From positions 11,033 to 75,032 of the forward strand of contig VMFZ01000001.1 of assembly GCA_007376285.1 (NCBI GenBank): a DNA stretch of 64,000 bases, written 5' to 3'. The notes beneath the pieces were generated by a model. The model worked only from the letters and a program-made list of their open reading frames with translations. It did no database searches and was not told the DNA's origin. The position numbers and the translations under genes were made by a program. This stretch comes from Parcubacteria group bacterium Gr01-1014_17 (GTDB lineage: Bacteria; Patescibacteriota; Minisyncoccia; Phycocordibacterales; UBA10002). How positions within the stretch are numbered: position 1 is the first letter of the stretch; the number at the start of each line of letters is the position of its first letter. Of the stretch, positions 12,605-64,000 are shown one piece after another.

Positions 12605-12624
12605 GTTGTCTTTATCTTACTCTT

Positions 12625-12652: not shown

Positions 12653-12661
12653 ATACCACAG

Positions 12662-25432: not shown

Positions 25433-26260
25433 TTATTTCAACTTCGCCTCGCGGAGCACGATTTGTATTTCATTCACAATTTCGTCAAGCGAAGCGGTCG
25501 CTTTGATTAAAAAGCGGTTTGCGCCGAGCTGTTTTCCTTTATCAATATCGCTTTTCTGTCCTAGATTGGAAAGAAGAATCACCGGAAGCGCCTTGGTTTC
25601 TGGTTTTGCGCGAATCTGCCGGAGCACTTCAAACCCGTCCTGACCGGGAAGGAGAATATCAAGAAGCACTATGTCAGATTTTTCATTCCGCAGGGATTCA
25701 AACGCCTCGCCACTGTCCGTTGCATGCAAAAGTTTCGCGCCAGCGCCCGAGAGCTTGCGCACCAAAATATCATGGAGGAACGCATCGTCCTCAACCACAA
25801 GCACGGCTTTGCCGGATAGACTGTCCCCTGCTGTTGTGTCCACTTTTTTCTCTTCACTATCTATTTCCACCGTATGGCTTGCGCCCGTGCGGTCAAGCTG
25901 AAGCCGGATTTTCGCGAGTACCTCTTCTGGGCTAAACTGCGCCTTAACGATGTAATCGCGCACGCCGAGTGACAGCGCGCGGTTAATCTCTACCGGTTGT
26001 CCGGAGTTGGAAATGATAATAGTCGGAATGGAAGCAATACCTGCGTCATTCACCTTTTCTTCCAGAATTTCGTACCCGCCCATGGTCGGAAGCACGATAT
26101 CTAAAAGAAGCAAATCGGGCTTCATTTCCCGGAGCTTTTTCAAGCCCTCGCCGCCGTCGCGCGTGAGCGCGACGGTGTACCCTTCGCCTTTGAGCTTCTG
26201 GACAAGCACATCGCCCAAAAACACATCGTCTTCAATAATCAAAATTCGTTGATTCGCCAT
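25433..26260 (-). CDS. response regulator with two tandem receiver domains
   Basis: two REC modules (ILIIEDD..LLLDIVLP and VLVVEDD..VLLDILLP), no output domain. Confidence 0.8.
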   Translation of the reverse strand: MANQRILIIEDDVFLGDVLVQKLKGEGYTVALTRDGGEGLKKLREMKPDLLLLDIVLPTMGGYEILEEKVNDAGIASIPTIIISNSGQPVEINRALSLGVRDYIVKAQFSPEEVLAKIRLQLDRTGASHTVEIDSEEKKVDTTAGDSLSGKAVLVVEDDAFLHDILVRKLSGAGAKLLHATDSGEAFESLRNEKSDIVLLDILLPGQDGFEVLRQIRAKPETKALPVILLSNLGQKSDIDKGKQLGANRFLIKATASLDEIVNEIQIVLREAKLK

Positions 26261-26274
26261 AATAAAAATAAGAA

Positions 26275-27147
26275 TTAATGTTTAGCGGTGTTTGAAAACG
26301 GAATCGTAAAATAAAACGAGCTTCCGTGCCCCGTACCTTCGCTTTCAAACCAAATCCTGCCGCCGTGTTTCTCTACAATCGTTTTTGCAATGAAAAGCCC
26401 GAGTCCCGAGCCGTTCGTTTCTGCCTTCACGGCATTCTTTGCGCGGAAAAGCCGGTTGAAAATATATGGCTGCTGCTCCTTCGGAATCCCGATGCCGTTG
26501 TCCGCAACCGTAAACTCAATTTCTTTTTCGCGCGCCTCAACCGCGAGGCGAATAAGGCCCCCTTCCATTGTATACGCGATAGCATTCTCCAGCAAATTCT
26601 GGAACACGACACGCATGCGCTCAGGGTCTGCGGAAACAGGCGGCAGTGTTGTCGGACGCTTTTCAAAACGTATCGCAAGCTTTTTTTTATTTGCCTGCGG
26701 AAGCACTTCGTAGAGCACCTTATCAAGGAGATCCAAAAGGTTTGTCGGCGTAAACATAAACAAGAACCGACCCGATTCAATGCGGTCCGCAGAAAGCATG
26801 TCATTGATAAGAAGAATCATGCGCTCGGTGCTCTCGTACGCTTTCATTAAAAATGTTTTCTGCTCATTGCCGAGTTTGCCAAGCTCGCCACTCACGAGCA
26901 TGTCAATCGCCCATTTAATTGCGGAAAGCGGCGTGCGAAGCTGGTGCGCCGCGACCGATACGAATTCGCTCTTCAGGCGGTCAAGCTCGCGGAGCTCTTC
27001 GTTTGCGAGCGACAGCTTAAAATCGCGCTGGACAAGGCCTTTGGCGATTTTGTCCAGCTCCGCGAGTGCCCCCTTCTGCGCTTCAAGCGCCGCACGGCAT
27101 TTCGCGAGTTCTCGCCGAAGCGTTTCGTTTTCTGAAGAAGCAGTCAT
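26275..27147 (-). CDS. cytoplasmic sensor histidine kinase (HisKA + HATPase_c)
   Basis: H-box AAHQLRTPLSAI; N, G1 and G2 boxes (GGRIWFESEGTGHGSSF); no TM segments. Confidence 0.85.
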   Translation of the reverse strand: MTASSENETLRRELAKCRAALEAQKGALAELDKIAKGLVQRDFKLSLANEELRELDRLKSEFVSVAAHQLRTPLSAIKWAIDMLVSGELGKLGNEQKTFLMKAYESTERMILLINDMLSADRIESGRFLFMFTPTNLLDLLDKVLYEVLPQANKKKLAIRFEKRPTTLPPVSADPERMRVVFQNLLENAIAYTMEGGLIRLAVEAREKEIEFTVADNGIGIPKEQQPYIFNRLFRAKNAVKAETNGSGLGLFIAKTIVEKHGGRIWFESEGTGHGSSFYFTIPFSNTAKH

Positions 27148-27149
27148 GT

Positions 27150-28340
27150 TTAATCACCCACGACGACAAGAGTCATTGTTTCGTTGTGGAAGTAAGCTGG
27201 TGTTCCTTTTTTACCGAGGAGCGGCCCCTGCTCGCCGTAGGTGTAAAAGCCGATCATAGGAACCTCGTTACCGATAATCGTATTCACAGCGTCGTTTTCT
27301 TCATGACAACGCACACCGAGCAACTTGTTGCGCGCCATACAGTTGAACATAAGGATGAACCGCGGAATCGCCCCTTCCAACTGCTCTTTCGCGCGCTCCG
27401 CCGCCCATTTAGCGGCACCAATCGCCTTTTCGCGGTCACCAATCATGAGGCGGATAGAAGAACCTTCCGGAATTTTTGCCGCAACCGTAATCTCGCCTTT
27501 CTCGTTAGCGACGACCGGATCGCGGATAAGGAATTCGTCACTCCCTTCAACCGCCATACCGAGAGGATAGGTGTATGCCATGCGCGCCAAGGGTTCCTTC
27601 ACGAGTTCGCTCGCCTCTTTGCCGAAATAACCTTCGTATACTGCGAGCGCCGGTTTTCCATCAATTTCTTTAATCACAGCCCCTTCCGCTTTCGTTACCT
27701 TAAGCGGCAAACCGACTGGCTCCCAACCGTGGCGTATGCCGAAGCCGTAGGAAAATTTCCCCGCCATACCAATGCCAACCACCGCATCCGTAAACACCTG
27801 GTCTCCGTAATACTCAAAGGTTTTTTTAAACAGGTAGTCGTCACCTGCCGAGCCGCCGATAATCGGAAAGTTCTCGCCTAACACCGACTGCGCGCCGCGC
27901 ACGATTTCTGCGCCATCTCCCGTCATGCCGTCCGGAATCATAAAAAAGAGTCCGATTTTCTCCTTGCCCGCGGCTTTGAGCACTGCTTTTGCCGCATCCG
28001 CCCCTGCTTTGGAACTGTTTTTTGACACTCCTTCGCCGTAGCCCGTGAAAAACCGCACGGACGGTGCAGCAGTAATTGCCATCGCATTTACTGCGTCAAA
28101 TTCGGTTGCCCATGAGGTAATTTCCCCTGCCGCGCTTCCGCCAACCACAAATGCGCCTCCCGCTGCCTTGTTCGCGCCCTTAAGCACTGCTTCTTGGTCG
28201 TATTTAATGGAAGAAAAAACAAACACAATATCCGGCTTCCGCTCCCCAAGTTTTGAAGCCGCTTCTGCGACAGCCTCGTAACCGGCATCAAAATGACTGC
28301 CGAGATTTTTTGACATGCCCACGCCTGCTTGTATTGACAT
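27150..28340 (-). CDS. FIST-domain signal-transduction sensor protein
   Basis: 396 aa with the FIST_N/FIST_C architecture; C-terminal GFYTYGE motif; immediately upstream of the HK. Confidence 0.7.
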   Translation of the reverse strand: MSIQAGVGMSKNLGSHFDAGYEAVAEAASKLGERKPDIVFVFSSIKYDQEAVLKGANKAAGGAFVVGGSAAGEITSWATEFDAVNAMAITAAPSVRFFTGYGEGVSKNSSKAGADAAKAVLKAAGKEKIGLFFMIPDGMTGDGAEIVRGAQSVLGENFPIIGGSAGDDYLFKKTFEYYGDQVFTDAVVGIGMAGKFSYGFGIRHGWEPVGLPLKVTKAEGAVIKEIDGKPALAVYEGYFGKEASELVKEPLARMAYTYPLGMAVEGSDEFLIRDPVVANEKGEITVAAKIPEGSSIRLMIGDREKAIGAAKWAAERAKEQLEGAIPRFILMFNCMARNKLLGVRCHEENDAVNTIIGNEVPMIGFYTYGEQGPLLGKKGTPAYFHNETMTLVVVGD

Positions 28341-38727: not shown

Positions 38728-39591
38728 GTGTCGTCCATTACCGTAATAAAACCGCCACAATTCCCGCGTCGATTGCGCGAAATACCAGACCCGCCGGAGA
38801 AACTCTGGGTGGAGGGGCCGCTTCCACCCGAAGAATATAAATGGCTCGCCGTGGTCGGCTCGCGCCGCTATTCGCAATACGGTCGCGAAGCGTGCGAGAA
38901 ACTAATTGCTGGATTGTACGGCCACCCCGTCGTTATCGTGTCGGGCCTTGCGCTCGGGATTGACTGCATTGCGCACCGCGCCGCGCTTGAAGCAAAATTA
39001 AAATGCGTCGCGGTGCCAGGCTCCGGCATCAGCCGAAAGGTCTTGCATCCGTCGGCAAACCGACCGCTGGCGGAAAAAATACTTGAGGACGGTGGCGCGC
39101 TCCTCTCGGAATTTCCTCCAGAGTTCCGCGCGACGCTCTATAGTTTCCCACAACGAAATCGCGTGATGGCAGGGCTCTCGGATGCCGTGCTTGTCATAGA
39201 AGCCGAGAAGAAATCCGGCACGCTCATCACCGCGCGGCTTGCCTCCGAATACAACCGCGATGTGCTCACCGTACCTGGCTCCATTTTCTCCGGCGCGACG
39301 GAAGGCCCTCACCTTTTGATGCGCCTCGGCGCAACACCAGTCAGAAATGCCGATGAACTTCTCGTGGCGCTTGGGTTTAAGGCGATATCCGACTCGGAAC
39401 GAAAAAATCGCAATTATTCTGATTGTTCGCCGGAAGAAATAAAAATCCTAGAACTTTTGACTGTTCCAATGGAGCGCGACGCGCTCATTGCCGCGGCGAA
39501 ACTTCCTGTAAGCAAAACCAACGCCGTCCTCTCGCTCCTTGAAATCAAGGGTTTTATTTCCGAGGGTATGGGCGAGATTCATTTAATCTGA
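38728..39591 (+). CDS. dprA: DNA processing protein DprA/Smf
   Basis: Rossmann-like core LAVVGSRRYSQYG..VIVSGLALGIDCIAHRAAL; GTG start only 26 bp from the divergent serS start. Confidence 0.85.
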   Translation: MSSITVIKPPQFPRRLREIPDPPEKLWVEGPLPPEEYKWLAVVGSRRYSQYGREACEKLIAGLYGHPVVIVSGLALGIDCIAHRAALEAKLKCVAVPGSGISRKVLHPSANRPLAEKILEDGGALLSEFPPEFRATLYSFPQRNRVMAGLSDAVLVIEAEKKSGTLITARLASEYNRDVLTVPGSIFSGATEGPHLLMRLGATPVRNADELLVALGFKAISDSERKNRNYSDCSPEEIKILELLTVPMERDALIAAAKLPVSKTNAVLSLLEIKGFISEGMGEIHLI

Positions 39592-46713: not shown

Positions 46714-48003
46714 ATGTTTCCTATTATTGTGCTCCTCGCGGAGCTTGCATTTCTCGTTATTGCAACGCTTTTGCAGGGTATCCTTGCAGGTGTCGCAATG
46801 CTATTCGCCATCGGTCTTACCATCGTCTTCTTCTACTACGCCGCCAAGAACAAACAACAGGCGTCGTTTGTAAAGCAAGGCACGATCGAGTTTGTGGTTG
46901 CGGGTGAGACGCTTATCGATGTTTTGGAAAACATTGATGGTTGGCACTACCAAAAAAAGTCCGGCTGGTTCCCTTATCAAAAAAGAACAGGAAGAATGAA
47001 CCCTGATGGCACGCCGGAATTAATAGACGCATGGATAAAAGTTGAAGACGGCATAGTGCCAGACCAAAAAGGACCAACCACAACTCCGCCAACGAAGCCA
47101 AACGGAAAAAGTAGGGGTTCATTCCTTAAACGCAAATTCGGATTCTTCTGGGTAAGCGCTCTGTATCCGCTACGAAGGATTTACATCTTTCCTGTTACAC
47201 ATTTGCGACTGAAATCCGAAACTGCAATACCGCAAGACGCTAAACTGGAGGAATGGCTAGAAAGTTCTGTAAAAGACGCAAACGGTCAAACAATGAACAG
47301 CGACACCACTGAAGAAAAATTCCTCCTATGGAGGTTCCCGCGCCCCGTACTCGTTCGGAATGTGAAGTTCACCGACTTATTTGAAGTGAATATCCTCATT
47401 CTCGCCTATTTCCAGATCGTCAGCACGCGGCCGCTTGTGTTTGAGTACCGGGAAAAGTTCTTCCTGTTGCTCGAAAAAGCACTGCAGGCTGCGGCCATTG
47501 ACTATCTGCGAAAAAAAGAATACCAAAAATTCATCACTTCGGGCACGACTGGACATCAATCAGAGTTTTTCTGGGACGCCTTGGAAAAAATCAACTGGGT
47601 GGGAACTACCGCTGAATCAGGACGCGGGTTGGTCAAAGAGTTCGGCGTGTACTTGCAGAATGCCTGGGTTGTGCAAATTGAACTATCCAGACAAGACGAC
47701 AAAGCAAGAACCGCACTTAAGGCGCAAGAAATCGCGCGGTTAGAAGGAGAAGCGACGAAAACTACGGCAAAGGCGCAAGCAGAGGCAATTAAAACTGTTG
47801 CCGAAGCAGATGCTGAAGCACTTGAAAAACAAAAGACCGCTTCAAGCGAAGCGATACTCATTGCTAAATTACGCAAGGAGGCACTCTTGGGTACTAAACT
47901 CAGTACGCTTGTGGAAGGAGGAGGGAGCAGTAGAGTTACGGTGTCAACACCACCGCCTCCAACACCTCCACCACCTCCGACACCACCTACATCATCACCA
48001 TAG
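46714..48003 (+). CDS. SPFH/band-7 domain membrane protein A (divergent, with insertion; Pro-rich C-terminal tail)
   Basis: N-terminal TM helices; SPFH-like blocks FVKQGTIEFVVAGETLIDV / KFGFFWVSALYPLRRIYIFP; A/E/K-rich coiled coil; C-terminus STPPPPTPPPPPTPPTSSP. Confidence 0.55.
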   Translation: MFPIIVLLAELAFLVIATLLQGILAGVAMLFAIGLTIVFFYYAAKNKQQASFVKQGTIEFVVAGETLIDVLENIDGWHYQKKSGWFPYQKRTGRMNPDGTPELIDAWIKVEDGIVPDQKGPTTTPPTKPNGKSRGSFLKRKFGFFWVSALYPLRRIYIFPVTHLRLKSETAIPQDAKLEEWLESSVKDANGQTMNSDTTEEKFLLWRFPRPVLVRNVKFTDLFEVNILILAYFQIVSTRPLVFEYREKFFLLLEKALQAAAIDYLRKKEYQKFITSGTTGHQSEFFWDALEKINWVGTTAESGRGLVKEFGVYLQNAWVVQIELSRQDDKARTALKAQEIARLEGEATKTTAKAQAEAIKTVAEADAEALEKQKTASSEAILIAKLRKEALLGTKLSTLVEGGGSSRVTVSTPPPPTPPPPPTPPTSSP

Positions 48004-48064
48004 ACGGAGAATTGCGGAATTGTTCTTTAGAAACACACAACCAACCGGCGCTCCAAAGCGTCGG

Positions 48065-48093
48065 TTGACTTTTTATTACAGCTATGCTATATT
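48065..48093 (+). promoter_or_regulatory. promoter B: TTGACT-N17-(TGC)TATATT upstream of SPFH-B; overlaps the SPFH-A terminator hairpin
   Basis: hexamers plus extended -10 TG. Confidence 0.5.
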
Positions 48094-48160
48094 TCCACAC
48101 AGAAAATCAAGGATGAACCTTGACAATAAAAACGCAGAGAAACTTGAAAGGAATTGAGGT

Positions 48161-49402
48161 ATGAAGAAATGGTTGAAATCTATATACAGGAAAATCAAAC
48201 CCGCAAGAACATTCTGGACCACTGTTGCAATTGTCTATTTAACAGCGTTGTTTGTGATTATTATGACAAACAGCGACATGAAATTGCTGGGTACAGAACT
48301 ATCGTGGAATTGGGGACGAGCAACTTTCTGGACTTTGTGCTTTTACACATTGCTCAGTTTGCGCGTTGTGAAGGAAGATGAGGTTGGTGCACGGTTATTT
48401 TTCAGAAGACCGTTGCACAACCTTTCTTCCGGGCTTGTTTTCATTCCCCTTGGCTTTTGCCAAATCGTAAAAGAAACACGACTCATCATGCAGGACGAAC
48501 TGCCTGCGCCGCCGGAAAAAATCTGGCGAACTAAAAAAGGCAAGCGCGGCGAAGCATCACCAGAAGCAGATGTGGTGCCTGCCGATAAAGCAAAGGAGGG
48601 GTACAAACCTCCTATTAGGATAACATTCGGAGCACCGAATGTGGAATTACCAGAAAATACTACCGACAAGGTAGAACAAGAACAGAATATTGAAATCAAC
48701 AAACACATTAAGAAAATCAGGGAGGCGCAACAGGGAGAAAATGGTGTGCGTGACCCTTTTGATTTTCGAATGACCGCGGAAGTGTTTCTTATTATTCGGT
48801 GGAGAATAGACGACTTTGTTAGATTTATCTCCACTATCGGCACAATAGATAAAGCGCGGACTCAAATTGAGGATACGGCAACCGCAGCGGTTACTCGGGC
48901 TTTTGCAAAAATCAGCCCAGCAGTGGCGCTCGCGCATTTGGGGACTCAAAGCAAGTATTTACGCGCAGAAATTGAAGAGCGGATAAGCGGAAAGGGTGAG
49001 GAAAAAAAGAGGTTGCCGTGGGGAATAAAAATGGAAACAGCACAAATTAAGCTCATCAATTTCAGCCATGAGTTTAACGATGCGGTACAGGAACGAGCTG
49101 AGGCGGAAGCAATCGCACAAGTGAAAGCTACGGAAGGAAAGGGCGAGGGAGACAAAGAAAAACGGATACTGACTGGAAGGGCGGATGGGTTGAAGCATAT
49201 GGCGAAAGAACTCGGTGTATCATCAGCAGCAGTGCTTGCGTCTGAAACGGCGCGAGCCATTACGCAAAATCCCGGTCAGAAGACAATCATTGCCGGTTCG
49301 GGGGGCCTTGCAGATCTAATGGGAGTTGTTACGGCGTTAGGACAGACACTCGGCGGTGATAAAAACAAAACACAAGAAAAGAAAGGAGATACAAATGTTT
49401 GA
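48161..49402 (+). CDS. SPFH/band-7 (stomatin/HflK/C-like) membrane protein B
   Basis: VKEDEVGARLFFRRP..GLVFIPLGFCQIVK..TRLIMQDE canonical band-7 N-terminal blocks; AEAEAIAQVKATEG coiled coil. Confidence 0.8.
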   Translation: MKKWLKSIYRKIKPARTFWTTVAIVYLTALFVIIMTNSDMKLLGTELSWNWGRATFWTLCFYTLLSLRVVKEDEVGARLFFRRPLHNLSSGLVFIPLGFCQIVKETRLIMQDELPAPPEKIWRTKKGKRGEASPEADVVPADKAKEGYKPPIRITFGAPNVELPENTTDKVEQEQNIEINKHIKKIREAQQGENGVRDPFDFRMTAEVFLIIRWRIDDFVRFISTIGTIDKARTQIEDTATAAVTRAFAKISPAVALAHLGTQSKYLRAEIEERISGKGEEKKRLPWGIKMETAQIKLINFSHEFNDAVQERAEAEAIAQVKATEGKGEGDKEKRILTGRADGLKHMAKELGVSSAAVLASETARAITQNPGQKTIIAGSGGLADLMGVVTALGQTLGGDKNKTQEKKGDTNV

Positions 49403-50183
49403 ATTCATCATTCCAGCATTACTTGCGGCGGTTGTTTGGGCGGTATGGTTAAAGCCCACCACGACCAGTAGTGCAATCGCGGGTACAGAAGGACCACCCA
49501 CACCATCTGTTTCGTTGGATACTAAAGTTAAAACGATTGTGAAATGGGCGGTTGGAGTGCTTGGCGGATTGCTCATTATCTACGGCGTGTGGAGCGGGAA
49601 TTGGCGTGCATGGTGGAATGGTTCCGTCACTTATGTTGCAGACACATTGGGGCTATTTGGCCACTATTGGCTCATCGTGCTCGGTGCGGTCGTCTTGCTT
49701 CTTCTGCTTTGTTACGCGGGAGCAAGAGACGGCAAAACCGCTGGCGAGCGAATTGAAAAAGCAATGAAAATTGGTTTCTCCTTCGCAGTCCTTGCGGCGC
49801 TTCTCGCCGTTACCGCAGTGTTCGGCATAATCATTGTCGGACCGCGGTACTTCTGGGGCGAGCCGAGTGTGATTCAGGTTCAGCAACCGGCGACGCAAAG
49901 GCAAGCACAAACGCAGACTTCGTCGCGATCCTTCACCACAACAGCACATCCTGGCGATCCGCAAGACCCGCGCGCTCCGTGGAGCGCGTCAGTTGTCGTA
50001 AATGGCAGGCGTTTCAGCGCCGATGTGGTCGGCGCACAAAGCACGGTACCGATGGCGGTACTTGCAGATGGAGTGGTTCACATAATCGCTCCAGGATTGC
50101 GGCCGCACATTGGTGCGCCGCAAGAAATCCGGTTTCTATCGCTCACCAACTTTCCGCTTCATATAATCGGTACGATTGAGTGA
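49395..50183 (+). CDS. SPFH-associated 3-TM membrane protein D1 (NfeD-like by position only)
   Basis: 8-nt overlap with the SPFH-B stop (ATGTTTGA); paralogue of 51459-52145 (shared GPRYFWGEPSVIQVQQ, FLSLTN). Confidence 0.55.
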   Translation: MFEFIIPALLAAVVWAVWLKPTTTSSAIAGTEGPPTPSVSLDTKVKTIVKWAVGVLGGLLIIYGVWSGNWRAWWNGSVTYVADTLGLFGHYWLIVLGAVVLLLLLCYAGARDGKTAGERIEKAMKIGFSFAVLAALLAVTAVFGIIIVGPRYFWGEPSVIQVQQPATQRQAQTQTSSRSFTTTAHPGDPQDPRAPWSASVVVNGRRFSADVVGAQSTVPMAVLADGVVHIIAPGLRPHIGAPQEIRFLSLTNFPLHIIGTIE

Positions 50184-50204
50184 GTAAACACACAGGCGTT
50201 CGCT

Positions 50205-50235
50205 GAAAAGCGAACGCCTGATTTTTTATCCGCCT
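50205..50235 (+). terminator. Rho-independent terminator CAGGCGTTCGCTGAAAAGCGAACGCCTG + ATTTTTT (second weaker hairpin ATCCGC..GCGGATTTTT follows)
   Basis: perfect 10-bp stem plus T-run. Confidence 0.7.
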
Positions 50236-50259
50236 CGCATCTATAGAGCGGATTTTTAC

Positions 50260-50288
50260 TTGATAAAAAGCCCCGACTATGCTAATTT
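50260..50288 (+). promoter_or_regulatory. promoter C: TTGATA-N17-(TGC)TAATTT upstream of SPFH-C
   Basis: paralogous to promoters A and B; leader contains palindrome 50324-50356. Confidence 0.45.
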
Positions 50289-50385
50289 CCTACACAGAGT
50301 TAGACCTTTGACAAAAGACAACTGTCGCCTCATCGGCGACCCGCCGAAGAGGCGGGAACAAAACTGAAAGAACGGAAAAATTGTT

Positions 50386-51459
50386 ATGAAAATACCGAGA
50401 TTCTTGAAACGATCAACAAACATTTTACTTCTAATTCTTGCAAACCTGCTCGCAGTCCTGTTTGCACAAATCATTCTTCGGAGCGCCTTTGAACCTTCGT
50501 GGTTTCTGACACTTGTTATCAGCACGGTAATTATTCCCATACTGACAACTTCGGGACTCGTGGAAATCCCGATTCAACACGCAGGCGTACCGCTCATATT
50601 CGGAAAACGACAGAAAAACTGGCTTCTTGACGAAGGGCTTAACTGGATTCTTCCTACGCCGTTCATGGGGGTAGAAATTGTTGATGTGCAGGAAAAAACA
50701 ATCCGGATTCCAGCGTCAGAAATTGAAGAAGACGCAAGGCCTCTCATTATTCCCGCAATCAGAGGACTACCTGCTCTTTCAAAAGATGGCAAAGCGGAAG
50801 AAACAACTCTCAACGAAGAAATATGGGGAAAAATCAGGTTCGTGCAGATGAAAGTGCGGCTGGCAATCCGGTATCGGGTGGTTCATCCATACCAGTTTCT
50901 GAGCCAAGAACCCAGCGTGGTGGAACGAGGACTCGGCGATTTGACTATCAAAACGCTCCGACAGAAAGGTTCGGAGATGAGCGACATACAACTCATCCGG
51001 CTCAAAGACACCTTTGAGGCGGACATCATCAAAGAAATGAAAAAAGAACAAGCGTATGAAGGAAGTAAAAAGACAACAGAGGAAAGCCCTTTAGAAAGAT
51101 GGGGCGTTGTTGTTCATAATGTATTCATTCCGCGAATCCTCCACGCCGACCCGGAAATGACAAAAATGTACGAAGCCGCAATGCGTGAAGAACAACAGTG
51201 CACCTCAGAAAACATTGAACAAGAGTTCCTTACCGCAAGTATTGAACGATTGGTCAAAAAAGGACTCACAGCACAAGAGGCACTGCTTGCGATTCAAGCA
51301 GAACGCGGAAAGCTCACGCGGCGTGAAGTGATAATCACGAGCACAGGCGGAGGAGCTGTTGGAGACATTGCCAAAGCAGTTGCGACATACGCAGGACTAC
51401 TTGGCGACCAACCAAAAACAGAACAAAATGAGAATCAAAATCAGAAAGGAGATAACTAA
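50386..51459 (+). CDS. SPFH/band-7 membrane protein C
   Basis: IQHAGVPLIFGKRQKNWLLDEGLNWILPTPFMGVEIVDVQEKTIRIP band-7 N-terminal block; 357 aa. Confidence 0.75.
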   Translation: MKIPRFLKRSTNILLLILANLLAVLFAQIILRSAFEPSWFLTLVISTVIIPILTTSGLVEIPIQHAGVPLIFGKRQKNWLLDEGLNWILPTPFMGVEIVDVQEKTIRIPASEIEEDARPLIIPAIRGLPALSKDGKAEETTLNEEIWGKIRFVQMKVRLAIRYRVVHPYQFLSQEPSVVERGLGDLTIKTLRQKGSEMSDIQLIRLKDTFEADIIKEMKKEQAYEGSKKTTEESPLERWGVVVHNVFIPRILHADPEMTKMYEAAMREEQQCTSENIEQEFLTASIERLVKKGLTAQEALLAIQAERGKLTRREVIITSTGGGAVGDIAKAVATYAGLLGDQPKTEQNENQNQKGDN

Positions 51460-52145
51460 TGACCTTTGCAATCGATAAATGGAAAAAGAATGTGTGGAAA
51501 ATCGCTCTATGGAGCGCGTTTGGTCTTTTGGCAATTAAGTTTGCTATTTGGCCATTACTTCAGGGCACATACGACAAAGTCCGTTCGGTTGGAAAAAAAG
51601 AAATCGGGATTGTTGAATGGTTGCCGAACTTAGGTCCCTATTGGCTCGTAGCACTTGGTGCAGTCGTTTTGTTTCTCCTGCTCATATATGCAGGAGCGAA
51701 AGACGGCAAGACCGCAAGCGAGCGGCTCCAAAAAGCAATCAAGATTGGTTTTGCATTTGCTGGACTTGCGGCGCTTCTCGCCTTTACCGCGTTTCTCGGC
51801 ATTTTCATTGTCGGGCCGCGGTACTTCTGGGGCGAACCGAGCGTCATTCAGGTTCAACAACAGCCGGCGGCGCAGGTGCGGGCATCGGAATTTCCAAAAG
51901 AGTTCCGCGTGTCTGCGCTTCCGGGAAACCCGCAAGACCCAAACGCGCCGTGGAGCGCGCCGATACGGTTTGCAGGGCGGCGCGGAAGTTTCCAACTTGC
52001 GGGCGATTCTGCGCCAATCGCCGTAAAAACAGAAGTGGGCATCCACATAATTACAGTAGGGATGCCCCACCTGGGCACACCAGAGCGATTGCAGTTTCTA
52101 TCACTCACCAACCGCTCCCTTGAAATCACGGGGAGAGTTGAATGA
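51459..52145 (+). CDS. SPFH-associated 3-TM membrane protein D2 (paralogue of D1)
   Basis: start overlaps the SPFH-C stop; shared motifs with D1. Confidence 0.55.
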   Translation: MTFAIDKWKKNVWKIALWSAFGLLAIKFAIWPLLQGTYDKVRSVGKKEIGIVEWLPNLGPYWLVALGAVVLFLLLIYAGAKDGKTASERLQKAIKIGFAFAGLAALLAFTAFLGIFIVGPRYFWGEPSVIQVQQQPAAQVRASEFPKEFRVSALPGNPQDPNAPWSAPIRFAGRRGSFQLAGDSAPIAVKTEVGIHIITVGMPHLGTPERLQFLSLTNRSLEITGRVE

Positions 52146-52190
52146 GAAACACGACAGCCACGACGAAAGTGTCGGGGCTGTTTTTTGTTA

Positions 52191-52448
52191 TCAAAACGGA
52201 CACGCAACTCCTATTGTCCCGCAAATCACCCGCACAATACCTTTCGCTCCGAGCATCACTGCCATCCCGAGTACTCCCCAGAGCATTACCCATCCGCCTT
52301 TTTTGCGCTCCTCCTCGCTATCCAAGTGCGCCAAGAACATATACACCCCCCACGCGAAGGTGAGAGACGCGACCCCGAACATAAGATAAATCAGGGGGTT
52401 CAGAATATTCTCCCCGATTTTGTTGATGAAGGTGTTAATTGCAGCCAT
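52191..52448 (-). CDS. VirB2/TrbC-like small two-helix membrane protein P6 (divergent)
   Basis: two hydrophobic helices separated by DSEEERKKGG. Confidence 0.45.
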   Translation of the reverse strand: MAAINTFINKIGENILNPLIYLMFGVASLTFAWGVYMFLAHLDSEEERKKGGWVMLWGVLGMAVMLGAKGIVRVICGTIGVACPF

Positions 52449-52451
52449 TAA

Positions 52452-52808
52452 CTAAAAATTGAGCAAACCTGGAACATTCGGTAAGTTTTGACCAGCCCCC
52501 TGACCACCTCCGGTAAATGTGTTTTGCAAAAGCTTTACAAGACCAAAGATTGAAAAAGCAACGAACATACCGATAACCGCGTAAATCATAGTATTACGCG
52601 CTGAAGTTCGCTTTTCTTCATCTCCGCCAGAATTGACATATCCAATCACACCAACAAAGAAATAAATAAGCAAAAGTCCCCCTACAATAGGAATAACGAG
52701 GTTAATGATTTGTCCAACTGTCGTTGCCAAACCTCCTAGATTTCCCGTTTGCGCCAACGCCACAAATGGCACTGCATACAACGCCGCACTGACTAATACT
52801 TTTTTCAT
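52452..52808 (-). CDS. VirB2/TrbC-like pilin-family protein P5
   Basis: signal peptide + helix + SGGDEEKRTSARNTMIYAVIGMF + helix. Confidence 0.55.
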   Translation of the reverse strand: MKKVLVSAALYAVPFVALAQTGNLGGLATTVGQIINLVIPIVGGLLLIYFFVGVIGYVNSGGDEEKRTSARNTMIYAVIGMFVAFSIFGLVKLLQNTFTGGGQGAGQNLPNVPGLLNF

Positions 52809-52993
52809 AATATCCTTTTTAATAAACTAATAAATAATTATGACCTTTTTTTAATGACCGCTTTATATTATATACCATCCAAAAGACCTGCAACAGAGAT
52901 GCTGTGGACAACACCACTCCGCCTCGCTTCGCTCGGCACCCCTCCTCAGTTGAGGAGGGGAAAGGGGTGGTGGTGTTTGATATCGTGGACAAA

Positions 52994-53395
52994 TCAGGGA
53001 AGCCTCGGCACGATTGGGATATCGCCAGGGTTTAGGTGAATAAATGGACTACCGGGTAAGAAAAAGGTGTTGCGCACAAGATTTACTAACCCCCAAACGC
53101 TAAACATCACAAACATACCGATAACGGCATAAATCATATAACTGCGCGCCGCCGCCTGTTTTTCTTCATTGTCGGCTTTGAGGACATACTGGATAATTCC
53201 CCAGAAGAACCAAATGAGCGCCAAAGCGCCGACGATAAAACTGACTAAACTCAGAAGGTCTAGCAATATAAGAACAATGTTGCCGAGCGGGGTTCGCGCC
53301 GCAGGGTTGAGCAAGAGTTGAGTGCGAAGCGGTTGCGCGAATACAAAGAGAGGTAGAATAAATAACAAAAAAGAAGAAAAGATAAATTTTTTCAT
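52994..53395 (-). CDS. VirB2/TrbC-like pilin-family protein P4
   Basis: KADNEEKQAAARSYMIYAVIGMF loop between two helices; start at MKKFIF. Confidence 0.55.
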   Translation of the reverse strand: MKKFIFSSFLLFILPLFVFAQPLRTQLLLNPAARTPLGNIVLILLDLLSLVSFIVGALALIWFFWGIIQYVLKADNEEKQAAARSYMIYAVIGMFVMFSVWGLVNLVRNTFFLPGSPFIHLNPGDIPIVPRLP

Positions 53396-53399
53396 ATAT

Positions 53400-53720
53400 T
53401 TAATTGCAGTTGCCGGGGCCAAGCAAGCTTAAACAAATAATTTTGGCTGCGCCCCAATACACCAATAACGCCGCAAGACCGAGAACTCCGAAAAGCGCCG
53501 TTTGTTTGAACGCGCTCATTTTTTTCTCATCTCCACCGCCTCCCGCTCCGATATATCCGGCTATTTTTGCAAATACGACAAACCAAGCAAGAATGAGAAT
53601 GGCAAAAAGCGCCACATTAATATGGTCCAGCGTTAAATTAATCAACCCTTTAAAATCGGTTGGTGCGGCGAGGGCAAAAGATGGGGCAAATGCAAGAAGT
53701 GTTGGAAATAATTTCTTCAT
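53400..53720 (-). CDS. VirB2/TrbC-like pilin-family protein P3
   Basis: signal peptide MKKLFPTLLAFAPSFALA; GAGGGGDEKKMSAFKQTALFGVLG. Confidence 0.55.
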   Translation of the reverse strand: MKKLFPTLLAFAPSFALAAPTDFKGLINLTLDHINVALFAILILAWFVVFAKIAGYIGAGGGGDEKKMSAFKQTALFGVLGLAALLVYWGAAKIICLSLLGPGNCN

Positions 53721-53721
53721 T

Positions 53722-54102
53722 TTATTTCAACGAATTGATAGTGGTTTCCAAGATTGTTGCAAGCGCTTGCGCACCAAGCAATATCGCCGTGCCGATGACT
53801 GCGTATAAAATCGCTTTTTTTGCATCTTTGTGCTTTTCTTCGTTGCCGCCAGCGGTCACAAACAAAAATCCAGCGTAAATAATGAAAAATACTGCGACCA
53901 CGCCACCTATATCGGAAACAATCACGAGTATCTTCGCCGCAAGCGCTTGAAAGGTTGTGGTTGCACCGAGTGGGTTTGGTAAGGTGGTTAAACCCCCACC
54001 GGTAACTCCAGTACCTCCTCCGGTAACGCCTGTGTGTTGTGTAGCGGACGCCTCTCCAGCGGAAAGCAGAAACCCTATTATTACCCAAAATGTCTTTTGC
54101 AT
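53722..54102 (-). CDS. VirB2/TrbC-like pilin-family protein P2 (Gly/Thr-rich N-region)
   Basis: TAGGNEEKHKDAKKAILYAVIGTA loop motif; start at Met58; family-H palindrome 54121-54158 in the 5' UTR. Confidence 0.55.
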   Translation of the reverse strand: MQKTFWVIIGFLLSAGEASATQHTGVTGGGTGVTGGGLTTLPNPLGATTTFQALAAKILVIVSDIGGVVAVFFIIYAGFLFVTAGGNEEKHKDAKKAILYAVIGTAILLGAQALATILETTINSLK

Positions 54103-54176
54103 AGTGTTAAGTATATCACGAGGAGGCACCAGATGTTTGCCGCCTATCAACATCTGGTGCCACTTCCCTACCACAA

Positions 54177-54578
54177 TCAACCCCCAAGAAAAGAGAAGGC
54201 ACTTGGAACACCGAGTCCAATCAAAATCAATTTGACAATAAGCCATGCAGAAAGCATCCAGACAAAACCCCATACGACTGGCATAAACATTCCGCGTCCT
54301 TTTTCCATTTTGGATTCATTGCCCCCTGCGGTCAAAATGAGAAACCCGGCATAGGCAAACACCAGCGCGGCAATTGAACCGCCAATCATAATCAGAAAGT
54401 TAATGATATTATTGATGCCGATGATGAAGTGGCGAAATTCGCAGGGGTTTGAGATCTCTTCGTACGAACCAGTCGCACCAGTTACAGTCCGTGTCTCCGT
54501 TCCGCACGGCACGATTGGGGCGGCGTGGGCAAAGATAGGTAAAATCACAAAAATAGAAATTAGTGCGAGTATATACAT
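54177..54578 (-). CDS. VirB2/TrbC-like pilin-family protein P1
   Basis: TAGGNESKMEKGRGMF loop motif between helices; start at Met32, because the ORF's N-terminal 31 aa are a translation of repeat R1. Confidence 0.55.
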   Translation of the reverse strand: MYILALISIFVILPIFAHAAPIVPCGTETRTVTGATGSYEEISNPCEFRHFIIGINNIINFLIMIGGSIAALVFAYAGFLILTAGGNESKMEKGRGMFMPVVWGFVWMLSAWLIVKLILIGLGVPSAFSFLGG

Positions 54579-54660
54579 CCTCCGTCTCCCTACGGGAGAC
54601 ACCTCCCTCAAGGGAGGATTTTCTTTACTCCCCCTTTGAAGGGGGGTTGGGGGGATGTGA
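54578..54660. repeat. triple-hairpin GC repeat R1 (GTCTCCC..GGGAGAC / CCTCCCTCAAGGGAGG / CCCCCTTTGAAGGGGGG + TTGGGGGGATGT)
   Basis: about 85 nt; near-identical copies R2 (63303-63385) and R3 (63760-63850, inside a CDS). Confidence 0.75.
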
Positions 54661-54667
54661 TTTTTAT

Positions 54668-55948
54668 TCATCTTAATAATCTCTCTAACCCGCTCCGCAG
54701 GTCGCCGACGCCATTAGTAAGCTGTCCTCTACCGCCGGTAATATCTTCAACGACCGACTGGAATAATTTGGTCGTTTCGGTCGGATTCGGGTCAAGGAAA
54801 CTCCGCGCCTGTAAGGCCGCTTCGTAAAACACCGATTTCGCCGCGCTCTCTTGCTTGCGCTCTAAAAGCGCGCGGAGCGGCGGCACGGTGCCGAGTGCAT
54901 TGGCTAAGGTAACCGACCTTTGAGAATCCGCGAGTGCAAACCCGAGTCGTATCGCTCCGCCCGGATTTTTTCCGGTTTTCAGCGCAGCCAACCCCCATGT
55001 TTTGCCGAACGAAACCGTGAGCTTTGAATCCCGCGTCTGCGGAAACGGCGTTGCCGACATATTCAAATGCGGATTTTTCTCGCGAAGCCCTGCATATTCC
55101 GACGCAAAGCCGAAATAAAGCGCGAGGTCTCCAGACGCAAACATATTGTGCGATTGTGGAAGCCCGCGGTTCCAGGTGTAAAGCTTTTTTACTGGGTTCG
55201 CAAACTCCGTGAAAAACCCGAGTGCGCTTCCAGCATTTGCCCAGTCCTCAAGCGAAACCGCGAATCCTTCCGTTCCGCCCGCCTGTACGGGCAGGCGCGA
55301 AACAAGCTTGCCGCCGCTTTGGAAAAAGAGCGCCGAGAGAATCTCTTTTGCATTGGTAATGTTCCGAAATTCTCCAAGCGACACCGCCGCGCTCTGAATT
55401 TGCCCCAGCCGGTTGCGCACGACAAGCCGCGGCGTACCGGTAATCAATTCATCCCAATAGCGCGGCGGTCGCGCAATGTTTGCCGCACCAAACCGGTCGC
55501 GATTCCAATATGCGACCAGCGGGTCTACCGTAAGAGGGACCGCGATGGCTCCAGTTGTGCTCAAAAACACTTCTGCAGCTTCTACAAACGAGTCCTTAAA
55601 CTTCCGCTCCGAAAGCGTATCTAAAGGAATCGGCACAATTTTGTCGCCATGCCGCACCACGAGGTCGGATGGTAAAATAATTGCATCAGGACCTCTCCCT
55701 GCCGCGAGCGCTTCTATAAACTCCTGCTCAAACTTGTCTGCGCGAATCTCAGTGTATGTAAGCTTAAAATCATCTCCAGAAAAATCTGCTGTCGCGGTGG
55801 AAAACGCAGAACTCGGAAACGAGCCCCATACATCAAGCACCGCTGGTCCGCCACCCGCGGGCGTGCCTTTGAAAAGAGAAAAAGCAACCAGACCGCCAAT
55901 GGCGGCTATCACAAAAACAGCGAGCAAAATTATTTGAAATGGTCTCAT
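54668..55948 (-). CDS. membrane-anchored extracellular solute-binding protein (ABC-type SBP family 1-like)
   Basis: N-terminal TM anchor, 426 aa, two-lobe SBP-like composition; no specific substrate assignable. Confidence 0.55.
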   Translation of the reverse strand: MRPFQIILLAVFVIAAIGGLVAFSLFKGTPAGGGPAVLDVWGSFPSSAFSTATADFSGDDFKLTYTEIRADKFEQEFIEALAAGRGPDAIILPSDLVVRHGDKIVPIPLDTLSERKFKDSFVEAAEVFLSTTGAIAVPLTVDPLVAYWNRDRFGAANIARPPRYWDELITGTPRLVVRNRLGQIQSAAVSLGEFRNITNAKEILSALFFQSGGKLVSRLPVQAGGTEGFAVSLEDWANAGSALGFFTEFANPVKKLYTWNRGLPQSHNMFASGDLALYFGFASEYAGLREKNPHLNMSATPFPQTRDSKLTVSFGKTWGLAALKTGKNPGGAIRLGFALADSQRSVTLANALGTVPPLRALLERKQESAAKSVFYEAALQARSFLDPNPTETTKLFQSVVEDITGGRGQLTNGVGDLRSGLERLLR

Positions 55949-56472
55949 GGCTTACGGAAAATTATAGCATAATGATTAGAACCAGCCGCAATCTCTCTTT
56001 CAAACGCCAGACCCGCGCTCTCAAAAACCTCTTGCGCTTTTTGTTTGGAAACCACTGCAGAAGGCGCTGGCCCCGCACCGCCAAATGAGCCCGACCAATC
56101 AACCACGAGCGCTCTACCTCGCGGCTTTATAATGCGCGCGGCTTCGCGCGCAAGCCCTGTCTTGTCAAGCGCTTGAAACAAAATGTTCGCAATAATCGCG
56201 GCATCGCACGCGCCGCTAGCCAAGTGCGTCCCGTTTTCTTGCTCCGCATCGCCCCATACTGCTTCTATATTGTGCACGCTTTTTGAGCGCGCTTCGCGTT
56301 CAAGTCGCGACAAAAGTTCTTTCTGCACTTCCACAGCAAACACTTTGCCGTGCTCGCCAACTGCCTTTGCCGCGGCAAGCGCATACGCGCCACTCCCCGC
56401 GCCCACATCCGCCACACGCGAGCCGGATTGCAGGTCTAGTTGAGAAATGATTTTTTGTGGATTACTGAACAT
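55945..56472 (-). CDS. class I SAM-dependent methyltransferase
   Basis: motif I VADVGAGSGAYA, motif II, post-I acidic residue. Confidence 0.75.
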   Translation of the reverse strand: MFSNPQKIISQLDLQSGSRVADVGAGSGAYALAAAKAVGEHGKVFAVEVQKELLSRLEREARSKSVHNIEAVWGDAEQENGTHLASGACDAAIIANILFQALDKTGLAREAARIIKPRGRALVVDWSGSFGGAGPAPSAVVSKQKAQEVFESAGLAFEREIAAGSNHYAIIFRKP

Positions 56473-60769: not shown

Positions 60770-61159
60770 TTATTTCGTGCATCCGCCCTGCGTACATACA
60801 ATAGTCACAGTGGGAGTCTCACCTGTCGCATTTATGGAAAAACTGCCATCTGCTGCACTGGTATCTTGACCTCCACTTCCGTATGTCCAACCAGAAGGCA
60901 AAGCACCGTATTTCGTTAAACTACCGTCGCCACTTGCGCATATTGATGCGTTTACCACTGGTGAAGCTAAGTCAATTCCATCATTTGCGCACAACTGCAT
61001 TGCGGTAAGCATATTGCGCATACTGGACTGCGCCGCCGCAATGCGTGCGTTTTTCCGCTGTGGTCCAAGCGCCGCGAGCACGACCGTCGCCAACAAGCCG
61101 ATAATCGCAATGACCACCAAAAGTTCAATAAGTGTAAAACCTTTACGCATTCTTTTCAT
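60770..61159 (-). CDS. type IV pilin / pseudopilin (prepilin with class III leader)
   Basis: MKRMRKG|FTLIELLVVIAIIGLLA prepilin peptidase cleavage and N-methylation motif with Glu+5. Confidence 0.8.
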   Translation of the reverse strand: MKRMRKGFTLIELLVVIAIIGLLATVVLAALGPQRKNARIAAAQSSMRNMLTAMQLCANDGIDLASPVVNASICASGDGSLTKYGALPSGWTYGSGGQDTSAADGSFSINATGETPTVTIVCTQGGCTK

Positions 61160-61189
61160 ATATGTTTTTAAAAAGATAATAAACAATTA

Positions 61190-63302: not shown

Positions 63303-63385
63303 ATCCCTCCCTCCGCCTACTGGCGGAGTACTCCCCTCAAGGGGAGATTTTCTGAATCCCCCTTGGAAGGGGGTTGGGGGGATGT
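63303..63385. repeat. triple-hairpin GC repeat R2 in the fba/pfkB divergent region, ending GGGGGGATGT + TATAAT 7 nt before the pfkB ATG
   Basis: copy of R1/R3 lacking the first hairpin. Confidence 0.7.
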
Positions 63386-63397
63386 TATAATCCTCTT

Positions 63398-64000
63398 ATG
63401 CAACCATTGAAAAAAGAAAAAGTAAATACGGAATTCATAACCGCACACAAGAATGCAAAAACAAATTACCACTTCGTGCTTTGGTACGGCGCCGAGCGCA
63501 CGATTCTTGTTAAACACGAGCCCTATCAATACGCTCTACCAACCTTGCCGCCCGCTCGCTGGCTCTACCTTTCCTCAATCGGAAGCGGTACCGAAAAATA
63601 TCACGAGGATATTGCCGATTATCTTGCGAAAAACCCGTCCGTAAAATTCGCATTCCAGCCGGGAACATTCCAGATTAAACTTGGCACAGAAAAACTGAAG
63701 GGTCTGTACGAGCGCGCGGAGGTGTTGTTTGTAAATCGTGAGGAAGCGGAAAGAATCACATCCTCCGTCTCCCTTCGGGAGACACCTCCCTCAAGGGAGG
63801 AATTAAAATCCCCCTTTCAAGGGGGTGCCCGAAGGGCGGGGGATGTAAAAACCCTCCTCACAAACCTCCACGCGCTCGGACCAAAAATCGTATGCGTTAC
63901 TGACGGACCGAAAGGCGCATATATGGCGGATGAAAGAGGCGCATACTTTATGCCTCCCTACCCCGACCCCAAGCCGCCTGTTGAGCGCACCGGGGCAGGT
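63398..64000 (+). CDS. PfkB-family carbohydrate/ribokinase-like kinase (partial, runs off the window) with an in-frame 30-codon repeat insertion
   Basis: ALPTLPPARWLYLSS..LGPKIVCVTDGPKGAY..VERTGAGD (DTxGAGD anion-hole motif). Absent from the ORF track because it has no stop in the window; 603 nt = 201 complete codons. Confidence 0.75.
   Translation, partial: MQPLKKEKVNTEFITAHKNAKTNYHFVLWYGAERTILVKHEPYQYALPTLPPARWLYLSSIGSGTEKYHEDIADYLAKNPSVKFAFQPGTFQIKLGTEKLKGLYERAEVLFVNREEAERITSSVSLRETPPSREELKSPFQGGARRAGDVKTLLTNLHALGPKIVCVTDGPKGAYMADERGAYFMPPYPDPKPPVERTGAG
63760..63850. repeat. repeat R3 translated in frame inside pfkB (..TSSVSLRETPPSREELKSPFQGGARRAGDVKT..)
   Basis: near-identical to R1; exactly 90 nt. 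Confidence 0.75.

Follow-up and report, generated by a model that had tools for sequence, protein, structure and literature searches.

The pilin-like array and its surroundings

The stretch of DNA analysed here, a 64-kb window (positions 1-64000), comes from Parcubacteria group bacterium Gr01-1014_17, a member of the class Paceibacteria (Patescibacteria), and holds six minus-strand ORFs at 52191-54578 with products of 85-133 aa. A large part of the uncultured bacterial diversity belongs to Patescibacteria, which live attached to host cells and have Paceibacteria as their largest class. The six neighbouring genes of the original prediction were all recovered and are numbered P1 to P6 by ascending coordinate (Table 1), opposite to the order of transcription and hence to that of the prediction, whose second gene, with its Gly/Thr-rich N-region, corresponds to P5. 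From P6 to P1 the intergenic spacers measure 74, 1, 4, 185 and 3 nt; the predicted range of 1-75 nt thus holds for four of them and fails for P3-P2.

Upstream of the array lie genes for a binding protein and a methyltransferase, and gyrA; convergent SPFH genes lie downstream. The methyltransferase matched Pfam Methyltransf_31/25, UbiE and PCMT, with no specific NCBIfam equivalog. Its gene opens a conserved module and shares 4 nt with the binding-protein gene, stop overlapping start. In the AlphaFold2 model of the binding protein (pLDDT 93), residues 3-26 form an N-terminal helix, after which comes a MalE-like fold, and the top Foldseek matches were oligosaccharide-binding proteins and UgpB, with E about 1e-20. 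In sequence the binding protein shows 100% identity to a protein of Parcubacteria Gr01-1014_17. Neither the window nor the annotated flanks of relatives contained an ABC permease or ATPase partner for it.

Table 1 Features of the array and its upstream genes. Positions are those of the window.
Feature	Positions	Strand	Basis or remark
Terminator-like hairpin, then U-rich tract	52155-52180		-19.3 kcal/mol, z -4.4; between array and convergent plus-strand genes
P1, pilin-like hairpin, 85 aa; last gene of the array	52191-52448	-	PF18895, 26.5 bits
P2, pilin-like, 118 aa	52452-52808	-	PF18895, 44.7 bits
Internal spacer P3-P2, 185 nt	52809-52993	-	Sequence and fold
P3, pilin-like, 133 aa; most conserved paralogue	52994-53395	-	PF18895, 44.8 bits
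P4, divergent pilin-like paralogue, 106 aa	53400-53720	-	hhalign
P5, pilin-like, 126 aa	53722-54102	-	PF18895, 43.3 bits
18-bp stem-loop in the 74-nt P6-P5 spacer	54120-54166	-	Inverted repeat; -27.8 kcal/mol, z -3.2
P6, pilin-like, 133 aa	54177-54578	-	ORF remains open as far as 54671
Repeat-element copy, about 85 nt, three GC-rich hairpins	54580-54667		Between binding-protein stop and P6 ATG at 54578
Membrane-anchored family-1 solute-binding-protein-like, 426 aa	54668-55948	-	Pfam SBP_bac_1 and SBP_bac_8
Class I SAM-dependent methyltransferase, 175 aa, cytoplasmic	55945-56472	-	Pfam

The start of P6 is ambiguous (54578 or 54671) because a repeat element lies in frame before the ATG. The extension to 54671 consists of one copy of a palindromic repeat and is not conserved in the orthologue of the related genome L084; however, the start remains ambiguous because the 4-nt overlap with the binding-protein stop that results from 54671 is typical of relatives. 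One public gene call shortens P6 to 70 aa. An N-terminal extension of P5 to 54273 was discounted, since it would overlap P6 by 97 nt. The repeat (54580-54667) aligns to 63757-63830 and 63340-63400, has a fold energy of -44.9 kcal/mol (z -5.0), and its pattern CCYCCYNNNNRGGRGG occurs 5 times against 0.01 expected.

Within the P3-P2 spacer we found a 9-bp GC hairpin at 52939-52960 and a candidate promoter, TTGCAG-N15-TATAAT, at 52867-52893, 58 nt 5' of the P2 ATG. This site, in which the match to the consensus was read by eye, was not listed by the promoter scan because the scan limited the spacer to 16-18 nt, and it may function as a promoter. Relatives, too, tend to have a long spacer ahead of the penultimate gene (median 98 nt; at least 80 nt in 45 of 62), against 4-19 nt at the other array junctions. 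Rfam and tRNA scans gave no match in the region.

Membership of the T4SS pilin family

Profile comparisons showed all six proteins to be members of the T4SS pilin family PF18895, which comprises 86,792 cluster representatives, and on these scores their similarity to the family is far above chance. The family cut-off of 26.6 bits was passed by P2, P3, P5 and P6 with E-values of 1.3e-11 to 3.6e-7, the weakest being P6 (30.6 bits, E 3.6e-7), and P1 fell short of it by 0.1 bit. No Pfam match was obtained for P4 in the profile search. When compared by hhalign with family profiles built without the respective protein, P4 gave 96.4% probability (E 1.1e-9) and P1 97.2% (E 4e-11). The VirB2/TrbC pilin-like identity proposed from the sequence was thus borne out, curated profiles giving the T4SS pilin family and not an unrelated one.

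The relation to the TrbC/VirB2 family itself (PF04956; VirB2, TrbC, TraA) is more distant. None of the six proteins reached its gathering score of 27.9 bits, the highest value being 23.6 bits for P5 (E 6e-5), with 14.3 bits for P1. Among 98 members of the family, 52 matched PF04956 at E ≤ 1e-3 (best 8e-10), and with the six proteins themselves below the threshold, homology to TrbC/VirB2 is supported only transitively, through these relatives. The array proteins share with TrbC/VirB2 the small size, the signal peptide, the two hydrophobic helices and the short charged loop. They differ from the Gram-negative proteins in coming from a monoderm, in having no adjacent virB3 or virB4 and in forming a fixed set of several paralogues, of which P1 lacks a signal peptide. 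Similarity was also found to NCBIfam NF045849, the Mbov_0395 family of pilin-like conjugal transfer proteins of Mycoplasma ICEs (P5, 32.7 bits, E 4.5e-8; P2, 27.9 bits, E 1.4e-6; P1, 16.0 bits), with none of these three reaching the 40-bit cut-off. The Mbov_0395 proteins are likewise small, form a hairpin and belong to conjugation in a monoderm, but they reside on mobile elements, whereas the array of Gr01-1014_17 lies in a housekeeping part of the chromosome. A profile search of PDB sequences returned no solved VirB2, TraA or TrwL chain, only chance matches to subunits of respiratory complexes.

All six proteins contain a two-helix hydrophobic hairpin with a short charged loop of the GG(D/N)EEK form. 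Hydropathy analysis gave three hydrophobic segments for P2-P6, a Sec-type signal peptide and two helices, each signal peptide terminating in an AxA-type site, and two segments for P1, which has no signal peptide. Only P2 and P5 carry the full loop motif GG(D/N)EEK...YAVIG unchanged; in P1, P3, P4 and P6 it is degenerate. Individual subunits have features of their own: P6 (signal peptide end AHA|AP, loop GGNESK) has an exposed N-region of 35 aa with two Cys, P5 (loop GGNEEK) an exposed Gly/Thr-rich N-region, P4 (loop GGGGDEKK) a Cys pair at the C-terminus, and P2 (loop SGGDEEK) an exposed Gly/Gln-rich C-tail. In the AlphaFold2 model of P2 (pLDDT ~90) the signal-peptide helix spans residues 2-18 and the hairpin helices residues 24-59 and 64-102.

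Conservation, selection and distance from secretion genes

Homologous arrays were found at the equivalent genomic position in 66 of 80 related genomes, where the order, kept in 66-69 of the 80, is gyrA, methyltransferase, binding protein and then 4-8 pilin genes. The methyltransferase gene adjoins the binding-protein gene in 69 of the 80 loci (median junction 3 nt), and the latter lies directly 5' of the first pilin gene with a median gap of 1 nt (≤30 nt in 58 of 66); many of the module junctions are 4-nt overlaps of stop and start. These results show that the pilin genes close an operon in which the methyltransferase and the anchored MalE-like binding protein come first, and that this operon is conserved across the class Paceibacteria.

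The positions in the array are orthologous between genomes and the order of paralogues is kept, even though GyrA is only 61-71% identical. The best match of the last array gene is P1 in 47 of 66 relatives, most such last genes lacking a signal peptide, and in distant relatives array members seldom have P4 as their best match. Orthologues of P6, at the first position, have large N-terminal extracellular domains. Among relatives, extracellular domains are fused to the hairpin at the N- or C-terminus, in one case in a protein of 2153 aa, and single polypeptides with 6-17 tandem hairpins exist.

Identity among the six paralogues is 20-46% (mean 26%), and P3 is 89% identical to its orthologue in L084, with dN/dS of 0.05. 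Purifying selection acts on each of the six genes (dN/dS 0.05-0.15), the ratios being approximate because dS (1.0-2.2) is near saturation. The diversifying selection among the paralogues that the original prediction proposed to look for was not what we found: no gene-wide positive selection was detected in any of the six, and substitutions cluster in the signal peptides and termini, the hairpin cores being strongly conserved.

The statement that VirB4, VirD4 and VirB6 are missing from the window proved correct. A profile scan of the 40 larger neighbouring ORFs revealed none of these, nor PrgI, and no T4SS gene was found within 52 kb of the array on one side and 9 kb on the other. Among the 80 relatives, no Walker-A family of VirB4 size was recurrent within 10 kb of gyrA, and clustering of all ORFs of at least 450 aa in these flanks yielded only GyrA, IF-2 and singletons. 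Equivalents of virB3, virB4 or virB6 alongside the pilins were thus found neither in the scanned window ORFs nor in the gyrA flanks of relatives, so that the pilin genes here are not physically linked to a T4SS.

Possible function of the array

From the available evidence, we consider it probable that the six paralogues of the Patescibacteria VirB2/TrbC-type pilin-like protein (PF18895) are differentiated and non-redundant, and that a T4SS would build them into a heteromeric filament or conduit, so that the proteins may form a T4SS-dependent pilus. After cleavage of the signal peptide, each protein would reside in the cytoplasmic membrane, both termini facing outwards and the loop inwards. VirB4, VirB6 and PrgI would be encoded elsewhere in the genome, the machinery drawing subunits from the membrane pool, and the resulting surface filament or conduit may be used in contact with the host cell. 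P2 and P1, which stand behind their own promoter-like spacer, could be the bulk subunits, and P5 and P6, whose exposed N-regions become large extracellular domains in relatives, the adhesive or tip subunits. The binding protein, co-translated with the pilins, may be a receptor for a glycan from the host or may aid assembly.

Arrays of this kind are known. VirB2-like pilins are widespread in Patescibacteria as tandem arrays of 2-11, whose members are 25% identical on average and 54% at most (Quinonero-Coronel et al. 2025, PMC12102498); pilin genes were found near virB4 in 1135 of 1948 assemblies of the phylum (PMC12102498), and PF18895 arrays of the phylum were also published in PMC12857230. 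In Southlakia, an essential six-gene PF18895 array (SEML1_0014-0019) lies within a T4SS cluster (Wang et al. 2023, PMC10633639), adjoining VirB4-, PrgI- and VirB6-like genes (PMC10633639). The present array agrees with these in family, phylum, tandem layout and low paralogue identity, and since such arrays have been published (PMC12102498, PMC10633639), it is not a new kind. In the published work, arrays were counted where they lay within 20 genes of virB4 (Fig. S9 legend, PMC12102498), and Microgenomatia and Saccharimonadia were reported to have the most (PMC12102498), whereas the array of Gr01-1014_17 belongs to Paceibacteria and has no virB4 in the window. The Southlakia cluster also differs in being without the methyltransferase and the MalE-like binding protein that abut or overlap the array here. 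Apparently, the only new point is the location of the array in a widely conserved methyltransferase/binding-protein operon, apart from secretion genes.

This separation leaves room for another reading, which we regard as possible but unlikely, namely that the hairpins remain in the cytoplasmic membrane as a fixed hetero-oligomer that is independent of a T4SS and is never extruded by VirB4 as a pilus. Together with the anchored MalE-like protein, such an envelope complex might sense or take up host compounds, or simply anchor surface domains. The lack of T4SS genes near the array, in the window as in the 80 relatives, is consistent with it, as are the fixed number and order of the paralogues, the tight joining of the first pilin gene to a binding-protein gene without an ABC partner, and the use of hairpins as C-terminal anchors of large surface proteins; the chains with 6-17 hairpins would suit a fixed membrane complex no less than a filament. 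Against it stand the homology of the family to TrbC/VirB2 and to the pilin-like protein of Mycoplasma ICE, the membership of the essential Southlakia array in the same Pfam family, and the frequent proximity of virB4 to pilin genes in Patescibacteria assemblies. More tentatively still, the whole operon could be a self-contained surface module of Paceibacteria, in which a glycan-type receptor and a fixed assembly of VirB2-like hairpins serve host recognition or capture, independently of VirB4 or loosely tied to it, with the hairpin loops perhaps methylated. If true, the conjugative-pilin fold would have a second use besides T4SS pili.

The multiplicity of paralogues had been taken to suggest antigenic or functional diversification, and only the functional part fits our data well. 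It seems highly improbable that a single major pilin was multiplied into interchangeable versions so as to vary the surface that is exposed. P2, P5 and P6 do diverge faster at their exposed termini than in the cores, and the VirB2 paralogues of Bartonella and Anaplasma, likewise tandem multiplications of a T4SS pilin gene, offer an analogy, being read as antigenic or host-range variation (as cited in PMC12102498). The copies in Gr01-1014_17, in contrast, are ancient: the array positions correspond one by one to orthologues in other genomes, and this orthology together with the purifying selection on every gene argues against an antigenic-variation cassette. The paralogues are also far apart in sequence, P1 lacks a signal peptide, and no long repeats, recombination sites or invertible segments were found in the region. 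Chance ORFs or mis-called genes, to which the ambiguous start and the shortened public call of P6 might point, are already refuted by the profile matches, the conservation in 66 genomes, the purifying selection and the size of the family.

The comparison indicates that pilin multiplicity reflects division of labour rather than antigenic variation, and it yields predictions as to which subunits are bulk and which adhesive. For Paceibacteria, a sharply defined, near-universal candidate module of host interaction is obtained, with a methyltransferase, a glycan-type binding protein and 4-8 positionally conserved pilins. To our knowledge, no pilus has been seen for the PF18895 family in any monoderm. 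A T4SS pilus here would be the first pilus-like T4SS structure in one (PMC12857230). Genetic tests, made in one species, showed the T4SS and its six-gene pilin array to be essential for the host-attached lifestyle (PMC10633639), and in cultured Paceibacteria T4SS-pilin genes are among the most highly expressed genes of unknown function (PMC10936435).

A 228-aa protein encoded on the opposite strand at 51459-52145 has a hairpin ('IYAGAKDGK...') that resembles the pilin loop by eye. As a seventh pilin it was rejected (HMMER 0.1 bit, hhalign probability 0.8%). Its gene and that of a paralogue at 49356-50183 each lie after an SPFH gene.

Family membership and architecture of the array

The region 52191–54578 holds six consecutive genes, all on the minus strand, as the original prediction had it. 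They are numbered P1 to P6 by rising coordinate and are therefore transcribed from P6 to P1. In this order the spacers measure 74, 1, 4, 185 and 3 nt; the anticipated range of 1–75 nt fits four of them and fails only between P3 and P2. Hydropathy analysis gave three hydrophobic segments for each of P2–P6, namely a signal peptide with an AxA-type site at its end, followed by two long helices. The proposed topology of a signal peptide or hydrophobic helix, a loop and a second helix includes a signal peptide in P2–P6, P1 having two hydrophobic helices only. The short charged loop between the helices carries the motif previously assigned to it, (S/T/A)GG(D/N)EEK, in P2 (SGGDEEK) and P5 (AGGNEEK), and is degenerate in the remaining four. 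The AlphaFold2 model of P2 (pLDDT ~90) comprises a signal-peptide helix and a hairpin of helices 24–59 and 64–102.

P2, P3, P5 and P6 scored 30.6–44.8 bits against the Pfam T4SS_pilin profile PF18895 (cut-off 26.6 bits), P1 scored 26.5 bits, and P4 gave no match in the Pfam profile search. Against a profile built from PF18895-positive relatives only, with P4 and P1 left out, P4 matched with 96.4% probability (E 1e-9) and P1 with 97.2% (E 4e-11). Since four proteins pass PF18895 and the other two match the independent profile, all six are members of the family, and the reading as T4SS pilins is upheld by HMM search. It is a very large family, its cluster representatives numbering 86,792 at E ≤ 1e-3. 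Its tie to the classical TrbC/VirB2 family (PF04956) is weaker: P5 reached 23.6 bits, short of the 27.9 cut-off, and 52 of 98 family members matched at E ≤ 1e-3. Sub-threshold NCBIfam matches of P2 and P5 to NF045849, the Mbov_0395 pilin-like conjugal transfer protein of a Mycoplasma ICE and part of a monoderm conjugation system, hint that a related pilin-like component is present in monoderm MPF-FATA-type systems; this similarity is relevant to the origin of Patescibacteria pilins. Solved structures, searched by sequence profile and by fold, returned nothing informative.

The operon and its conservation

Upstream of the array, on the same strand, lie genes for an SBP_bac_1 solute-binding protein (100% identical to a Parcubacteria group bacterium Gr01-1014_17 protein), a SAM-dependent methyltransferase and gyrA. 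We searched 80 genomic loci around GyrA relatives, which are Paceibacteria, using a profile built from all six paralogues. A same-strand pilin-like array, mostly of 4–8 genes, was found downstream of gyrA in 66/80 loci, the binding-protein gene in 69/80 and the methyltransferase gene in 71/80, and public gene calls confirmed the arrangement. In these relatives the methyltransferase stop is followed by the binding-protein start at a median of 3 nt, and the binding-protein stop by the first pilin start at a median of 1 nt; 4-nt ATGA overlaps are frequent among these junctions, whereas the distance from gyrA to the methyltransferase is looser (median 112 nt, up to 4.6 kb). What is conserved as a unit is thus the methyltransferase, the binding protein and the pilins, with gyrA simply a frequent neighbour.

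The spacer ahead of the penultimate gene is also long in relatives (median 98 nt, at least 80 nt in 45/62) against 4–19 nt at the other junctions. The 185-nt P3–P2 spacer contains a 9-bp GC hairpin and TTGCAG-N15-TATAAT 58 nt upstream of P2, from which we infer a putative internal promoter serving P2 and P1. An 18-bp stem lies in the P6–P5 spacer and a terminator-like hairpin with a U-rich tail 3' of P1; all these promoter-like, stem and terminator-like signals are consensus or energy matches only. A repeated element (hairpins CATCCTCCGTCTCCC..GGGAGAC, CCTCCCTCAAGGGAGG and CCCCCTTTGAAGGGGG) has a pattern found 5 times where 0.01 occurrences would be expected. One of its copies lies between the end of the binding-protein gene and P6, in frame, and supplies the GGAGG-ATG taken as the P6 start.

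Features of the window, related loci and database proteins
Feature	Position	Strand	Length or remark
P1	52191–52448	−	85 aa
P2 match to NF045849	52452–52808
P5 match to NF045849	53722–54102		E 4.5e-8
P6	54177–54578	−	133 aa
Repeated element	54580–54667; 63757–63830; 63340–63400		~85 nt, three GC-rich hairpins
Binding protein	54668–55948	−	426 aa
Methyltransferase	55945–56472	−	175 aa
Two consecutive pairs, each SPFH/Band_7 then multi-pass membrane protein	46714–52145	+	converge on array from downstream side
Type IV pilus prepilin	60770–61186	−	N-terminal motif KGFTLIELLVVIAIIG; 6 kb upstream of array
DprA	38728–39591
Response regulator, histidine kinase, FIST-domain sensor protein, in a row	25433–28340	−
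Hairpin with large N-terminal extracellular domain (locus L039)	14284–15444		386 aa
Hairpin with large N-terminal extracellular domain (locus L081)	12531–13751		406 aa
Hairpin with Cys-rich C-terminal extension (locus L080)	9790–11205		471 aa
Hairpin at C-terminus of surface protein (locus L025)	9747–16207		at least 2153 aa
Poly-pilin P0241			820 aa; one signal peptide, 8 tandem pilin-like hairpins
Poly-pilin P0242			552 aa; one signal peptide, 6 tandem pilin-like hairpins
Poly-pilin P0252			1775 aa; one signal peptide, 17 tandem pilin-like hairpins

Pilin arrays of Patescibacteria have already been described (Wang et al. 2023; Quinonero-Coronel et al. 2025), so the finding belongs to a published kind. 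Of 1,948 Patescibacteria assemblies reported to carry VirB2-like pilins, 1,135 have them near virB4; the same study describes 441 arrays of 2–11 pilin genes, the array ring of its Fig. S9 representing arrays near virB4 (PMC12102498). Mean identity was 25% in those arrays and is 26% here (range 20–46%). Southlakia epibionticum likewise has six PF18895 genes (SEML1_0014–0019), all essential for epibiotic growth, but within a T4SS cluster, adjoining VirB4-, PrgI- and VirB6-like genes (PMC10633639), whereas none of the VirB4, VirB6, VirD4 and PrgI families was found among the scanned ORFs of the window, in keeping with the absence of the first three noted originally. Taken by itself the array is ordinary for this phylum; the useful new lead lies in its conserved operon context alone. 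The literature compared contained no description of the coupling to binding protein and methyltransferase or of the positional orthology, though a report elsewhere is possible.

Paralogue roles and possible function

The last array gene best matches P1 in 47/66 relatives and, like P1, mostly lacks a signal peptide. Across genomes the two preceding genes resemble P2 or P3 most, the fourth-last gene P5, and the first ones P5 or P6; P4 is hardly ever the best match. Compared with the closest array-bearing relative (GyrA 87% identical), identity is 89% for P3, 86% for P1, 84% for P4, 68% for P2 and P6 and 63% for P5. Substitutions concentrate in the signal peptides, in the stretch ahead of helix 1 of P5 and P6, and in the C-tail of P2, whereas the hairpin cores are nearly invariant. 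The dN/dS ratios, approximate because dS is near saturation, are 0.05–0.15 in all six genes and 0.07 in gyrA. On these comparisons the paralogues are old and not exchangeable. Diversifying selection, proposed earlier as something to check for, is not borne out by these ratios, and antigenic variation, one of the two kinds of diversification suggested earlier from the multiplicity of paralogues, is, given old paralogues in fixed positions, very improbable.

The likeliest reading, to which we give moderate credence, is a heteromeric filament or conduit made of subunits that a T4SS extracts. The hairpins would enter the membrane with both termini outside, be pulled out by a T4SS encoded elsewhere and build the structure, its body consisting of conserved bulk subunits and variable subunits with extra domains being exposed for host contact. 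A 2025 review (PMC12857230) credits Patescibacteria T4SSs with the potential for elaborating conjugative pili and names them as the only case reported among Gram-positive (monoderm) T4SSs, which otherwise lack VirB2-type pilins. In cultured Paceibacteria, T4SS-pilin genes rank with the most strongly expressed genes of unknown function (PMC10936435). The main rival, a T4SS-independent membrane complex acting with the binding protein, we regard as rather unlikely. It gains from the missing T4SS linkage (no family of VirB4 size bearing a Walker A motif recurs in the flanks of the 80 loci) and from database polypeptides with 6–17 hairpins per chain. Tandem hairpins on one chain imply that differing hairpins would be packed side by side, both termini outside, and such poly-pilins do not fit easily with a simple homopolymeric pilus. 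In its AlphaFold2 model (pLDDT 93) the binding protein has a membrane helix at the N-terminus and a MalE-like fold complete with both lobes, best matched by oligosaccharide-binding proteins and UgpB (E ~1e-20, 14–20% identity); neither the window nor the annotated flanks of relatives contain an ABC permease or ATPase.

Other features of the window

The window is housekeeping chromosome (rpoB, rpoC, dnaG, sigma-70, mreB, mreC, PBP2, gyrA and several aminoacyl-tRNA synthetases), and the response regulator, histidine kinase and FIST-domain protein form a compact signalling module amid it. The type IV prepilin belongs to a filament system distinct from the VirB2-like array. The SPFH-paired membrane proteins (49356–50183 and 51459–52145) are paralogues with a long identical motif in common; as pilin homologues they were ruled out (hhalign probability 0.8%). 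A pair of similar size (~230 aa and a Band_7 protein) comes after the array in many relatives.
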